Both the position numbers and the translations under genes were made by a program. From contig CM097886.1 in NCBI GenBank assembly GCA_044892525.1, forward strand, positions 40,610,001 to 40,674,000: a stretch of 64,000 bases of DNA, given 5' to 3'. Below are positions 13,401 through 37,400 of this stretch, piece after piece. The notes under the pieces are model-generated. The model worked only from the letters and a program-made list of their open reading frames with translations, was not told the origin of the DNA and ran no database searches. The stretch comes from Schmidtea polychroa. Its lineage: Eukaryota. The stretch's first letter is position 1, and each line of letters starts with the position of its first letter.

Positions 13401-16400
13401 ATGGGTGTCATTGATTTCGGGAGGTATTTTTGGCTTTTCTACCAGATTTCCAAAATTCTCTTGTTGCATTTGTTGTTCCAACTGGTCGAATTGTTGAATT
13501 TGTTCGAGGATTTGTTTGTTTATCATTTTACAAATGGGATTCTTTTTACACATTGTTTGGATGTTGTTGATGTGTGATCGGGTTGATTGAATGGTTTGGA
13601 TGATATGGGTTTTTACGGTCATCGGGTATGTGCATTGACTGGATTCTTGTTTAGGTTCTTGATTTTGATTTCGGTAATCTCGTACGATTTTCGGTTGGGC
13701 GTCTATTTGTTTGCTCTCCATCAGAATCATCAATACCATCATTGTTATCGTCATCTCGCCTCGCATGATACTATTATACATTCATTATGTTTATTTACAA
13801 TTGGTTTTAATGACCCTTAATTTAATGGTTCTGATTTGGATTATTTTCGCCGATTCTCATCAAGGTGGACTCTGCTTTAATTACCCTGTGTCTTAACTCG
13901 GGCAGCATTTCCAATTGTCGGTCTTTTTCACGGGCTTCTCTCTTTAGATGTCTAATTTCTTTTCCCAAGCGTCTAATTTCTTCCCTTTTCTTTTCAAGGT
14001 TTCTTTTTAGCTCGATTTGTAGGAGATCTTGTTCGTTTTCTTGCAGGTAATTTTGTTGTTGATGTTTTCTTTCTATTTCTCTATATTTGCGGACCCACTT
14101 CCTCATTTCTTTACTTTCCCGTTGGTTTTCTTCTAGTTGTCGTTTTAATTTATTTATAGCTGTTTGGCGCTCCTTCGCCTCAGTTTTCCAGTAGTCTTGG
14201 ATTACCTCCTTTGCTTTGAAGCTTGCCCTCTCTTTCCATAGTTCTTCCGCTATCTTTTCCCAGTTTTTCCCTCGCTTCCTTTGTTCGTGTAGCCATTCAT
14301 TTTCCTCTTCCGTTTCTCTTTTTATTTCCCCCAACGCTTCACACTCTTTCTTTAACACCTTTATCATTTTCCGGTCCTCCAGGTATTTGTTTATTAATCT
14401 CCCGTTTTCGTATTTCTCTTCCCGTAACTCGGCCTTTAGCGTTTGTGTTTCTGTTGTTTCTGCCTCAATCTCTCCCTCTTCTACGTCGCTCATAATTTCT
14501 ATCATTTCCTCGATTTTCATATCTATAATATTTACAATTAATCATGCGCTACAGTGCGACTTATACTTATACATTTATATCGTTTTTATTTACACAGGGT
14601 TACAGTCCCTCAAATACTTTTACTGTACTTTAATTTTTTTGTTTGGGATATACGTCCCGGTTTTTAGTTTTTCATCTTTTCATCCACCCTCATACGAAGG
14701 TTTCCTCCTGGCCTACATAACCTTCATCACTATCGACCGCGGAATGTAACTGTATCGCAATAGGGTCGTATGGTAGGTAATATTGGGGAATTTGAGCTCT
14801 CAATTCACTAACTTCGTCTCTTAGAGCTCGAGTGATATTCAATTCCTCGTCGAGCAGATAGGTGAGATACCTTGTCTCTTCATCTTTCACCTCTATCTGT
14901 TTGTCTAGGGCCTTGATTTTCTCGTCGCCCTTCCATTTTTCAATTTCTATTTCTAAGTTTTTAATATTTTCGGTGTACATTTTCCTTTCGTTTTCTAATT
15001 TTCTGTTTTTTCCCGCTAGGACCATGTTTCTTTGTTCCAGTGATCCTTGTAATCCATTAAGGTCTCTTTTCATCTCTTCTACCTGATTTACTAATTCCAC
15101 AACCCGTCCCGCTTGTTGGGTTATCATCTCTTCCATTGCGGCATTCTCGTGCTCTCTTATGTCGCACTTCATTGCCAAATGTCGCTCAAACTCCATAGCC
15201 TTTGTTTGCCAGGTTTGGCTTCGGGCGGCGACCTTTCTCAACCTTTTCAATTCTTCCTTTATTATTAAATTCTCCTCCCATTTACCTTGTTCGCTTTCAT
15301 ATCCGAGTCTCATGGGCAATTCTTTCATCTCTTTTTTCATTTCTCTGTTTTGTCTTTTCCATTTTCTCGCTTCTGCCACTAAGTGCATCATTTTCCTTCC
15401 TTCTATTTGCTTTTCCGCTTCGCGCTTGGTGTTCTCATCGGTAAGTCTCTTTCTCGCTTCCTGCACTAGCTGCTTTAAGTAGTGGCTGTGCGCTTCTTGG
15501 CGGGTATTTTCTAATGATGCCCATTTTGATGCTCTTTTACATGCTTCGGCTTCCTCTCTTAAGTTGTGTATTAACCATTGGTATTGACTATTCTCCTCTT
15601 TTCTAGTTTCTTCGATGTGATTTCGGGTGAGATTAGTTAGTTGGAACATTACTTTGTTCCATTTTTTGTTATGTTCTCGGGGAATTTGTGTCTTGTTGAC
15701 CTTGGTTGGGTCTATCGCAGTTTCGGTTATTTTCTCTTGTGTCATCTCTAAATCATAGACATCGATTAATCTTTTTATTATGAAAAAGGAATTTATTCAT
15801 TATTTACTGTTTCTTGGGGAATTTTCGCATCATTTTTGGGTTTTCGTATTTAGGGTTTTCATACTATTATTATATAATATTTTATTGGTTATATACACCG
15901 ATATATACAGATTATTATATACAACATTATTCGATTGGTTACTCCGTTCTACCCTTCTCCTCTTTCCTCACGGTCATCTTGATATATATGGTATCATTTC
16001 TCGCCATATCTTCTACTCTTTGTTGTGAGATGAACGTAGGTGCTCCTGTTGCTGATCCTTCTTCGTTGAGGGGCCTCTGGTAAGCTATTTGATTCCCCGT
16101 TGTTTTGAAGCTTTGCTCATGTATACTTTGGTTGTTCATCAGAGTAATATCGATTTTTGCCTGGAACGGCCATTCTAATATTTCGTCGTATTCTCCTTTA
16201 CATAATAGAAAGAAAATCGAAAAGTGCGTATCTAATCCGGTTCCGTCCCCGTTGGGATATATCTTCATTTTCATTTTGTACCCATTTTTCCAAGAATGGA
16301 ATGTAGGACTTGTTATTCTTGTCTCTTCTCCGGTTTTTGCTTTTCGTATTCTTTCTTTTACTCCCGTTATTTTCCATATGTAGGGTGCTGTTGGGGTTAT

Positions 16401-34400: not shown

Positions 34401-37400
34401 TCTCTTGATACCACTGATATACAGTTTCGGGGTTTATTTTTCCATCTGGGCGACTTAGGCCTGTGGCTAATATCATATGATTAGGTACGACTGGTGTTTG
34501 TCCGATTGCTTGCAGTAATATCGCGTTGATTTTTTCTCTTTTATGCTTCAGTGTTGTTAGGGAGTCGTTTTCTATATCGATAAACTTGAGCAGTTGTTGC
34601 ATTTGGTTCGCGAATTCTGTCATAGCTGTTGGAAAAGTAATGTTTTAATAATATGTAGTAAATTAATAGTTAATTCGTTAATTGGTTTCTTTAACCATTG
34701 TTAATTATTTAATTTGACTACTTTATCTCCTTTATTTATATATATCCTTAATTTTTCTATTATCTACATTTTGATTTTCTCTACTTAGTTCCTAATATAA
34801 TTTAATAATCAATAGTCAATTTGCATTCGTCAAGCAATGGTCGGTTGAAAACAGAAAATCGATGTGATAAATCCCTTTAATTTTGTATGAAAATCCCGGT
34901 GAATTTCGCATTCGTTAATAGAAATTTCAATCGACTGTAGATCCCGGCTGAGCCCCCAAAAATCATGTTGGGGTTACACCTCGGCTGACCGCTCTACCAT
35001 ATTGACGGGTCTAAGGGTTGATTGTCCATCTCGAATAAAAGGTGCCACTGATTTGTCAACCTGGAGTGAAACCCCACATAACTTTCTTCCAACATAGTGC
35101 CCGTGAATCACTTCACGTTGGTACTGCACTATGCAGGCGAGACGCCAGCAAGCAGGTGAGCTTCTGTCTTAAAACTACTCCTTGCTGAGGCCTCGACTTC
35201 CCATTCACGACTGCCGATGGAAGGGCTTACGTCCATTTCCTTACACAACCACTCATCAGGATTCGCTGAATGCAAACGGGGAATTTCTCACTAGATCTTG
35301 CGGGTTCTCTACTCAACCCACTTAATTAAAGTCTAATTATTCATGAACGAAAACGTGTAAGACAACAAGATTTATTAAATTCAACGTTATGACACAAGGA
35401 TTCAGCTGTACACTTTACTAATGTTTGTCGAAAGAAGAGAAAACATCATAATCAACATAGATCGGATCCTTGTTCCTCATCCTGACCGCCACTGGGGTTT
35501 TATTGTTTCTCCCATTCAGCGTCGGCGAATAATTCGTCGAGGTTAAAAAACTCGGAAGCGTTCTCTTCCCACGTTACTCCAGCGGCTGATATGATTCGTG
35601 CCGAGGGTCCCGTTGTTAGGTCGATGGACACGTGAGAGTTGCCACCGTTGGTTGAGTCCTCGATTGATGGGATGTTCGGCTTTGTAGTGGCGCGCTCGCG
35701 CTGTCTCTTCTTGCGCTCTGCACGAGAGAGTTGTTTACGCTTGGGTTTGCTTGAAGATGCCACTTGCAGAAGGGTGACAGGTACAGATGGACTAGCAGTG
35801 GGGGGCTTACTGGTACCCGTGACGACAACATCTGGTCGCTTGGGGAACAATTCGGTTTCGACGCAGTCTCGGCACGGTCTCTTGAACGGTGGAGATGGAT
35901 TCGAGGAAAGGTTGTGATGAGGCGGAAAGATGTCATCGGCCTCTCGGATGGGAATCTGCACTATTTTTCGGGTTGTAGCCGCCTGCACGTAAACCTTATG
36001 CAGTGCCTCGGATTGTTCTCTGATTAGACTTCTTTGGGCACGGCTCTCAGATATTAGCGCGTCCCGGCAATGCTCGCTACGATCGAGCTTCTTTTGGATC
36101 TCCTTCATCCGAGCGGGACTAAACCATGTCCCTTCCAGCTCGTCGATTTTTCGTTTATATCGACCGATCTGGGCTTGAAGATCTTTAATCACTGCATTTT
36201 TATCTGAGCAGGAGAAGCAGGGACGTAGAGCTGATTTGTTGTTTGATAACATATGGATGGCTAAAGAAGAAAACTATGATGACTATATCCAAAAATTTCG
36301 GATCAGATATACGGTTTATTCGCTATTGGATACTTAGTGCTGGGAGAAAACAAGACGAGTCGACGAAACAGGATCCCTCCCTTCACCCTTGATTACTAAT
36401 ATTTTACGTATCCTTTACAAAAATTATTCCTCAACGCCCTGATTGCTTCCCTGACGAATGCAAATTATTTGTAAAAATTTTAATTTTCGTCTGTCGCGTT
36501 CGAGTTGGATTTCTATCTATCGCACATAACGGCAATTGACGGATTGGTTCATGCCGGAGTGAATAAACCTATTTCATTACAAATACACTATACTACACTT
36601 CGTTTAAATTTCGCTGATTATTTGTTGTTATTCTAATGCAAAATAAGGTTTTTGGACCAGATGCAACTAGTAAAAACTTGCACCCTTACCTCAAGTAGCG
36701 GAATAAGTAACAACTCGTAATTTCGTATAAACTATACGTCACTATTTTATGATTACCCCTTATCCATACCATACGGTGATATCGTCGTAGAAATATAGCA
36801 TCGTAAAAATATTGTAATTACATAATAATTTGTTATCGGATTTAGTTTTCTATTACAATACGTCATTTACAGGGAATATGAGAAATTTAACTACAATATT
36901 ACTAGCTATTTTATAACCCAAAAATTCCTGTAGATACTTTAGTTAATTTAAATTTGGCTCGAAGGCTACTACTATTATTTGTAACATCTAATTAGAATTA
37001 CGATAAACCTCTACAACACTTAGGTAAAACTTCCTATGGTTTAGTTATAAAGTTTGGTTTGAATTTTCGGTTATTAATTAAAATACCCCTTCAACAATTT
37101 CGATTTTTATTTAGAATATTTAATTTAAGCAAAATTATCTTTAATGAGTGCACTTTAGAGAGTCCCTTATCTTAGTAGTCGGTTACTGGTTATTTGGCTT
37201 ATCTTTTTAGTGGTACGAATGGCCTTTATCAGTAGTGAAATTTAAGAGTCAGTCATCTGGAAGTCACATCTCATGTCAGCATTATCTAATAGGACCACTG
37301 ATTACTACTCACACACTAAGAATCCTAGAGAGGGTGACACATGGCGGCATTCCCTGCGGTGAGAGGAATTTGGAATGATTCTGCTGTTTCTCATGCATAT

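Follow-up and report, generated by a model that had tools for sequence, protein, structure and literature searches.

A BIR-less Burro-type giant Ty3/gypsy element in Schmidtea polychroa with Bcl-2-fold, TRAF, RING, ubiquitin-like and ankyrin modules under purifying selection

This study describes a giant retroelement in a stretch of 64,000 nucleotides (nt) from Schmidtea polychroa (assembly GCA_044892525.1, contig CM097886.1, positions 40,610,001 to 40,674,000), referred to here as the window. An earlier note, made from the sequence alone, had read 15939..34623 as a retroelement carrying a toolkit for cell-death, TNF-NF-kB and ubiquitin signalling. The window contains one complete long terminal repeat (LTR) element of 30,301 bp on the minus strand, at 8775-39075, an extent which, like the Env gene inside it, was absent from that note. 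The two LTRs show a single mismatch in 4110 bp (position 8858/35049) and, because they are near-identical and a 4-bp duplication lies at the flanks, the insertion is very recent; the copy is intact. In the primer-binding site, 15 nt pair with tandem tRNA genes of the same genome, which ARAGORN calls as tRNA-Pro, and the final 3 nt pair with the added CCA of the tRNA. These tRNA-Pro(TGG) genes stand in long tandem arrays with a 475-bp unit at C1:130.90-130.95 Mb and elsewhere, and the pattern has 1602 matches genome-wide. The two TG...CA LTRs, the target duplication and the tRNA primer site, together with a Gag followed by protease (PR), reverse transcriptase (RT), RNase H (RH) and integrase (IN) with intact catalytic motifs, are those of a Ty3/gypsy element. 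No purine-rich polypurine tract is evident beside the 3′ LTR (window 12885-12915), no Rfam family was found in the element, and the Pfam scan detected no DNA-virus core genes in it. The GC content is 38-40% in the element as opposed to about 25% in the flanks. Each LTR carries an open reading frame (ORF) of 250 amino acids (aa); these are accompanied, in order, by a 161-aa RING ORF, the 4617-aa polyprotein and ORFs of 119, 462 (TRAF), 351, 232 and 222 aa, with gaps of 40-193 nt between the 3′ accessory ORFs. The features are as follows, with TM for transmembrane segment and Ubl for ubiquitin-like.

8771-8774 and 39076-39079: target-site duplication GTAT, 4 bp
34966..39075, minus strand: 5′ LTR, 4110 bp, TG...CA ends
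35500..36252, minus strand (second copy 9309-10061): LTR ORF, 250 aa, without Pfam family, with a basic stretch and CxxC motifs
34941..34958, minus strand: primer-binding site 7 nt inward of the LTR end, pairing with the 3′ terminus of host tRNA-Pro(TGG)
34138..34623, minus strand: RING ORF, 161 aa, helical N-terminus and cIAP/XIAP-type C-terminal RING, without BIR
33042..33531, strand not applicable: 75-bp tandem repeat in the leader, 6.6 copies
17933..31786, minus strand: polyprotein, 4617 aa, Gag-Ubl x3-Bcl2-Env-PR-RT-RH-IN-ankyrins-membrane protein
30881..31759, minus strand: Gag capsid domain and three CCHC zinc knuckles, aa 10-302 (Pfam Retrotrans_gag E 3e-9; motif search)
29552..29824, minus strand: Ubl-a, aa 655-745, probable ubiquitin-like fold (hhalign, ESM Atlas)
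28982..29245, minus strand: Ubl-b, aa 848-935, weak ubiquitin/UBX-like call (hhalign)
28067..28300, minus strand: Ubl-c, aa 1163-1240, probable ubiquitin-like fold (hhalign, Pfam)
27032..27559, minus strand: Bcl-2-fold domain, aa 1410-1585, immediately preceding the predicted signal sequence of Env
25082..26998, minus strand: Env, Monjiviricetes-type fusion glycoprotein (Pfam PF24664 E 2e-70)
21527..24598, minus strand: protease (DTG), reverse transcriptase (YIDD), RNase H and integrase in Ty3/gypsy order (Pfam and motifs)
19142..21064, minus strand: two ankyrin blocks, aa 3575-3800 and 3935-4215 (Pfam Ank_2 E 1e-17)
17933..18934, minus strand: predicted type I membrane protein at the C-terminus, with signal-like aa 4285-4303 and TM aa 4553-4571
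17413..17772, minus strand: coiled-coil ORF, 119 aa, without family
15939..17327, minus strand: full-length intronless TRAF, 462 aa, RING, zinc fingers, coiled coil and MATH
14690..15745, minus strand: coiled-coil ORF, 351 aa
13822..14520, minus strand: coiled-coil ORF, 232 aa (Pfam scan)
13113..13781, minus strand: predicted single-pass membrane protein, 222 aa, TM 128-146, the most variable ORF
8775..12884, minus strand: 3′ LTR, 4110 bp, TG...CA ends

The polyprotein comprises 4617 aa from its ATG, in a frame of 4732 codons from stop to stop. Its Bcl-2 domain is weak in Pfam by itself (E 0.075), and a profile of five sequences matches Bcl-xL first (E 2e-4). The domain has the helical bundle with a BH1/BH2 region that defines the fold, and the AlphaFold model built from 14 sequences reached a pLDDT of 78; every row listed by Foldseek was a Bcl-2-fold chain, yet none had an E value below 0.001. 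In the search against all representative structures the top 34 rows were Bcl-2 folds, the best with Z 11.9 and a root-mean-square deviation of 2.9 over 135 aligned residues, and the first unrelated row had Z 5.6. No usable match for this domain was obtained in the ESM Atlas. Judged from the model, the Bcl-2 assignment holds despite the weak sequence score. For the Ubl segments the assignments are moderate for Ubl-a and Ubl-c and weak for Ubl-b, as judged from profiles: Ubl-a and Ubl-c match the ubiquitin-like domains of related elements (hhalign 66%, E 6e-5 and 85%, E 7e-6, respectively), Ubl-a falls with ubiquitin/SUMO-like clusters at 0.87-0.90 in the ESM Atlas and Ubl-c reaches E 0.03 with Pfam ubiquitin, while Ubl-b has an hhalign score of 6% and a sister-family homolog matching OTU1_UBXL (E 0.0035). 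The structure model of the Ubl region had a pLDDT of only 41, so that fold searches with it were uninformative, and homolog searches with this region returned nothing. Env has a predicted signal sequence at aa ~1597-1616 and a TM at aa 2178-2196. For the dUTPase-like segment that Burro elements have between PR and RT, neither Pfam nor a single-sequence PDB search gave a match here. The ankyrin blocks resemble generic arrays, IkB being absent from the best 60 of 231 and the best 60 of 183 PDB matches of the two blocks.

Among the accessory ORFs, the 462-aa ORF has all parts of a TRAF, namely RING, zinc fingers, coiled coil and MATH (Pfam MATH E 3e-27; PDB TRAF2/3 E 4e-28; TRAF5/6 N-termini E 2e-14). 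A homolog search with it returned nothing, which is surprising given the PDB matches and is therefore not read as absence. In TRAF2 a serine triad acts in the receptor groove; in the element TRAF these serines are replaced (SSSF vs QIAY). The best 92 of 1928 candidate copies in the genome are 95-100% identical to the TRAF ORF and 91 of the 92 are free of internal stops, a count that is a lower bound and biased toward intact copies. The RING of the 161-aa ORF has the cIAP2, cIAP1 and XIAP RINGs as its top PDB matches (E 7e-10). Members of the IAP family carry at least one BIR, and this ORF has the IAP-type RING only: a BIR query from the sister family described below gave nothing below E 0.5 in the element or in 84 family stretches, and the positive control was found. 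The possibility that a BIR exon is concealed in, or spliced from, the LTR or leader was also rejected, as none was found there. The BIR is the domain by which cIAPs bind TRAF2, and because the family of the window element lacks it, a TRAF2-cIAP-type interface is absent. The 119-aa ORF is 31% identical to a sister-family ORF; the 351-aa ORF, termed SMC-like in published descriptions, gave no SMC match in the present analysis. Thirteen of 18 copies of the 222-aa ORF are free of stop or frameshift. No canonical TRAF-binding motif occurs in the tail of this ORF or in the last 32 polyprotein residues, and one TDEE lies in the post-Env linker. The basic stretch and CxxC motifs of the LTR ORF suggest a nuclear regulator. 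Hence the full TRAF, the IAP-type RING ORF, the Bcl-2-like domain and the ankyrin arrays seen in the earlier note were all recovered, the Bcl-2 module also by the AlphaFold and Foldseek check it had proposed; it was silent on the missing BIR. Its three Ubl domains stand at moderate strength in two cases and weakly in the third, and both of its single-pass membrane proteins are predicted here, although the 222-aa ORF (13113-13781) lies outside the interval it had given.

Selection was evaluated as the ratio of non-synonymous to synonymous substitution rates (dN/dS) between the window copy and 18 copies picked across the 95-99% range, with 15-19 sequences per segment; these copies were drawn from the best TRAF matches and are related, which makes the codon-bootstrap intervals too narrow. 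Every module is under purifying selection in up to 19 copies, with dN/dS of 0.02-0.19 in 27 of the 29 segments and 0.29 and 0.35 in the other two, as opposed to 0.54-1.23 in the non-coding leader and 1.2-4.0 in wrong frames. Neutral evolution, which would have spoken against the toolkit, was thus not seen. Env is the most constrained module (0.02); PR, RT, RNase H and integrase have 0.03-0.05 (RT 0.03), the Bcl-2 domain 0.06 and the Ubl segments 0.09 (Ubl-a), 0.04 (Ubl-b) and 0.07 (Ubl-c). The ankyrin blocks have 0.11 and 0.10, the C-terminal membrane protein 0.14 and the 161-aa RING ORF 0.14 (RING part 0.07). Within the TRAF the values are 0.13 for the RING and zinc fingers, 0.29 for the coiled coil (interval up to 0.98) and 0.17 for MATH, and the 119-, 351-, 232- and 222-aa ORFs have 0.09, 0.10, 0.09 and 0.35. 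The 250-aa LTR ORF was open in 11 of 11 aligned sequences with a dN/dS of 0.14 (0.11-0.18) and 1.2-2.0 in the other frames, in a comparison for which 8 of 18 LTR stretches failed to align over 80%; purifying selection on this ORF is seen even between LTRs that are 65% identical. The accessory modules are 66-100% identical between copies (RING 77-100%, 232-aa ORF 78-100%, 222-aa ORF 66-99%) as opposed to 93-100% in the core (RT 95-100%), a patchwork that suggests recombination between lineages. One family copy (L031:3891-7397) has a 3.5-kb insert directly before the Bcl-2 domain, apparently a DNA transposon.

The same genome harbours a sister family with the Burro1 layout, i.e., a RING ORF, a polyprotein with an internal MATH, a 157-aa ORF, TRAF, BIR-RING, and coiled-coil and membrane ORFs. 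Its identity to the window element is 90% in RT-RNase H, 82% in the integrase, 59% in Env, 42-44% in the Ubl segments, 37% in the Bcl-2 domain, 30% in TRAF, 28% in the ankyrins and 27% in the RING ORF at the same position; the 161-aa RING ORF also aligns with the C-terminal 80 aa of the sister BIR-RING at 32%. The BIR occurs at at least 150 scored genome sites, mostly in frames of 392-393 aa. A sister copy at C1:193.596-193.638 Mb carries the BIR-RING, the TRAF and the in-polyprotein MATH; its polyprotein is interrupted in Env and RT, and a 7-kb block of its 3′ accessory genes is present twice, 29.8 kb apart, at 99.8% identity. A third family is shorter, with frames of about 3050 codons; it has Gag-Bcl2-Env, its BH1-like motif is closer to the canonical form, and no Ubl match was found in it. 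A Bcl-2-like domain directly before Env is therefore found in three families of the same genome, and a weak Bcl-2 match before Env in six of the eight unnamed database proteins scanned. In an RT-RNase H tree of 29 proteins, the window element and the sister form one clade (100/100), which adjoins 14 unnamed Gag-Env-Pol proteins (91/94); in a scan of 14 proteins of this sort, three had a ubiquitin- or UBX-like match and one had ankyrins. Together these database proteins define a broader set of the form Gag-(Ubl)-(Bcl2)-Env-Pol, in which two or three protease-like domains occur in several members and Ig domains in one. The three Burro MATH types group together weakly (87/69, long branches) and their origin is without firm support. 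Host-type full-length TRAF genes also occur in the genome, each as one open frame of 454-473 codons, in addition to TRAF MATH exons that are clustered on C2. A derivation of the host TRAF expansion from Burro was considered and is unsupported, since the 30 host-type MATH domains, many of them clustered on C2, branch apart. Outside the element, hAT-type DNA transposase fragments (DUF4371, hAT dimerisation domain) lie on the plus strand at window 50509-52860.

Burro1/GYPSM1 is a giant gypsy-like LTR retrotransposon of Schmidtea mediterranea (Jurka, 2007; Grohme, 2018, cited in PMC6431247). As described in PMC6431247, it exceeds 30 kb and has a 4873-aa polyprotein, a three-knuckle Gag, MATH_TRAF, Ubl, Bcl-2, Env, BIR and ankyrins; the same paper reads Burro as an integrated provirus and already proposes that it meddles with host apoptosis and ubiquitination. 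The window element shares with Burro1 a length above 30 kb, long LTRs, one polyprotein of 4.6-4.9 thousand aa, a Gag with three CCHC knuckles, a probable Ubl/SUMO-like domain before Bcl-2, Env in frame between Bcl-2 and the protease, the order PR-RT-RH-IN, ankyrins, TRAF/MATH (the TRAF here as an accessory ORF) and accessory ORFs, a likeness drawn from the published layout. For the Ubl trait the profile and language-model scores are moderate and the fold model is of low confidence. However, the two marks of Burro1 proper, a BIR-type IAP gene and a MATH in the polyprotein, are both lacking in the window element, whereas the sister family has both. The window element thus represents a BIR-less Burro-type family, a system of known kind whose cargo has already been described for Burro, and not the undescribed system for which the earlier note had seen it as the best candidate, as the domain set and the apoptosis and ubiquitin hypothesis are those of PMC6431247. 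Three published BURRO1 primers match neither the window family nor the sister (at least 5 mismatches), and protein searches found no Burro references. In the literature searched, no description of the BIR-less family, the splicing or the selection results was found; Grohme 2018, Lee 2026 or supplements may have them.

Among other known systems, a Burro-like element of Dugesia tigrina, as described in PMC6431247, likewise has a polyprotein without MATH_TRAF_C and a separate accessory ORF that carries it; that ORF is placed 'upstream' and the polyprotein has 5140 aa and two knuckles, whereas here the TRAF lies downstream and the polyprotein has 4617 aa and three knuckles. The Gag-Env-Pol order is reported from elements of flatworms (Platyhelminthes), Nematoda and Bryozoa (passages of PMC13524379). 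The Ty3/gypsy 'errantiviruses' with a gB-type Env described there share the Env between Gag and Pol, but a word search of the main text gave no Bcl-2, ankyrin or Schmidtea, and the window element adds its cargo and at least seven accessory ORFs. The survival kits of large DNA viruses (Bcl-2 of poxviruses, herpesviruses and asfivirus; IAP of baculoviruses) have folds in common with the element, A179L, BHRF1, KsBcl-2 and M11L matching the Bcl-2 model at Z 7.9-11.4; however, the window element replicates by RT and integrase with LTRs, and cellular Bcl-2 chains match equally well or better. The Burro1 BIR+RING protein (B-IAP), according to passages of PMC13465017 that cite Lee et al. 2026, reportedly shields stem cells from death by caspases. 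It shares with the 161-aa ORF a Burro-borne IAP-type RING and a proposed role in survival, and differs in having BIR and RING, as the window ORF is RING-only and sits before gag.

The following signals bear on how the genes of the element would be expressed.

38690..38745, minus strand: predicted LTR promoter with inverted CCAAT box and TATA box, about 360 nt into the LTR
38474..38483, minus strand: predicted 5′ splice donor (GTAAG at 38480) at the end of a short leader exon
31787..32131, minus strand: ATG-less Gag extension, 115 codons in frame, with a candidate near-cognate ACG start

The CCAAT and TATA motifs could both be aligned in 12 of 12 other copies, with LTR identities as low as 72%. 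The donor lies about 230 nt downstream of this pair; in 12 of 12 copies a GTAAG[AGT] occurs at nt 578-644 of the LTR, and in five of them it aligns directly with the window donor. A YAG stands 1-2 nt before the ATG in five of six internal accessory ORFs as opposed to 30 of 543 other ATGs, and the LTR 250-aa ORF has an acceptor-like TTCTTTAG 8 nt upstream. With the two families pooled, a YAG precedes 10 of 13 accessory starts by 0-3 nt, compared with 11-14% of background ATGs (binomial P ~1e-6 at 15%). By analogy with complex retroviruses, this pattern suggests spliced sub-genomic RNAs for the accessory ORFs. Flatworms have spliced leaders and operons with gaps up to 300 bp (passages of PMC12582326), and spliced-leader trans-splicing is possible for these ORFs; because the LTR donor is conserved, cis-splicing is favoured. 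Contigs of three presumed-RNA runs and one run of uncertain kind cover the element, mostly at 90-95% identity; none of the contig rows listed has a joint at a predicted acceptor, which says nothing for or against expression.

The Gag-extension frame has a dN/dS of 0.11 (0.04-0.27) and is open in 14 of 14 sequences, with 1.8 and 4.0 in the other frames, and it stays open for 103-117 codons in diverged copies and the sister family. Because an ATG-less frame is under selection and open in diverged copies, Gag likely starts upstream of the first ATG, and the 115 codons are likely a translated N-terminal extension, begun perhaps at the ACG kept in diverged copies. A spliced-leader AUG at the upstream TAG was rejected as the Gag start, since diverged copies are without that in-frame TAG. 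In the third family, about 24 conserved codons precede the first ATG.

Given the boundaries, primer site, domains, copy number, selection and absence of the BIR described above, we consider the element, with moderate confidence, to be a Burro-type giant Ty3/gypsy element with Env that keeps its Bcl-2-fold, TRAF, IAP-type RING, ubiquitin-like and ankyrin modules under selection, likely for host-cell survival and damped stress or immune signalling during replication. In this model, the genomic RNA would be translated into a polyprotein that spans the membrane, with Gag-Ubl-Bcl2 in the cytosol, the signal sequence, a luminal Env, the TM at 2178-2196, Pol and ankyrins again in the cytosol, and a second signal and TM. 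Cellular Bcl-2 proteins bear a hydrophobic tail, and cleavage of the polyprotein is predicted to leave the Env signal sequence on the Bcl-2 domain as such a membrane anchor, which would site the protein to block a mitochondrial or ER death step. Rather than forming a TRAF2-cIAP pair directed at NF-kB, the TRAF and the RING-only protein would each work by itself as a ubiquitin ligase or decoy on host TRAF, IAP or kinase signalling, and the accessory ORFs would be expressed from sub-genomic RNAs in which the short LTR leader exon is spliced to an acceptor before each start codon. Survival of the producing cell is the best functional reading, going by the fold and by the role reported for the sister-type B-IAP. 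The specific combination for Burro of a leader exon spliced to at least seven accessory acceptors, a non-AUG Gag start, an Env signal that anchors the Bcl-2-fold protein and a BIR-less route that differs from B-IAP is offered as a tentative proposal.

Several points weigh against this reading. Purifying selection means use to the element and does not tell which use. The window family lacks the BIR, the domain of the sole Burro protein with a reported function, and BURRO1 RNA interference (RNAi), in the passages available, gave no improvement of the smedwi-2 phenotype. BH3 binding is not assured, because in the family of the window element a His occupies the BH1 site at which Bcl-xL and the sister family have Arg. 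Some Bcl-2 folds of poxviruses inhibit signalling instead, and the fit of the model to the poxviral inhibitors A52, N1 and B14 and to pro-apoptotic BAX/BAK is nearly as good. The pre-Env signal sequence is below the hydrophobicity threshold in the window copy and clearer in relatives. As to splicing, 16 of 18 copies lack a YAG acceptor before the 222-aa ORF, AAG takes the place of YAG before the 119-aa ORF in most copies, and three of the five sister-family YAGs double as in-frame stops.

Alternatively, the modules could chiefly support an endogenous virus in making and spreading its particles, through ubiquitin-dependent budding, trafficking or removal of restriction factors, with survival as a side effect. 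The strong constraint on Env, the two further membrane proteins, the view of Burro as an integrated provirus in PMC6431247 and the related Gag-Env-Pol elements whose polyproteins have a Ubl in the corresponding position but neither TRAF nor IAP all fit this explanation, which we nevertheless regard as unlikely, as the Bcl-2 fold and the IAP-type RING are death-pathway folds, the sister-type BIR-RING has a reported survival role (PMC13465017) and the literature passages on Burro report no particles.

Less probable still is the coordinated TRAF2/cIAP/IkB-like kit blocking the path from TNF receptor to NF-kB that the earlier note had modelled. The TRAF is indeed nearest to TRAF2/3 and the RING to cIAP, and seven divergent Rel-homology genes as well as TRAFs induced by TBK1 are present in S. 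mediterranea, but clear NF-kB homologs were not identified in that species (passages of PMC13563047); a Rel-homology search of the present genome was blank, as was its control. The missing BIR, the replaced receptor-groove serines, the two scanned membrane-protein tails without a canonical TRAF-binding motif and the lack of IkB among the best 60 PDB matches of either ankyrin block weigh against this model of TRAF2-cIAP action at TNF receptors with ankyrins as NF-kB blockers. Interference at the level of TRAFs without NF-kB is plausible, because the host has numerous TRAFs, with reported effects on cell survival (passages of PMC6109357 and PMC7586133). Of the proposed function, survival of the host cell thus stays plausible, having passed the dN/dS check and with an anti-apoptotic role reported second-hand for Burro1, while the innate-silencing TNF/NF-kB framing is unsupported.

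It is likewise improbable that the window family is a rider or antagonist that uses the survival protein of its BIR-bearing sister, with the RING-only protein and TRAF as decoys or regulators of sister or host IAP/TRAF: the distribution of the BIR, the alignment of the RING ORF to the end of the sister BIR-RING and the greater variability of the accessory modules agree with it, but the sister carries a RING-only ORF besides its BIR-RING, so that the former is not a replacement, and the window family is autonomous and retains its own Bcl-2 domain.

To what is known of Burro, the window copy adds selection on each module, structural support for the Bcl-2 domain and concrete predicted splice sites, as well as a BIR-less family beside a BIR-bearing one in one genome. 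If the splicing model is true, it would account for the way in which accessory genes arrayed in tandem are expressed from a retrotransposon, and each gene would be separately targetable by RNAi. If a BIR-less route of protection is true, the two families would form a natural pair in one genome for asking what makes a retroelement a mutualist.

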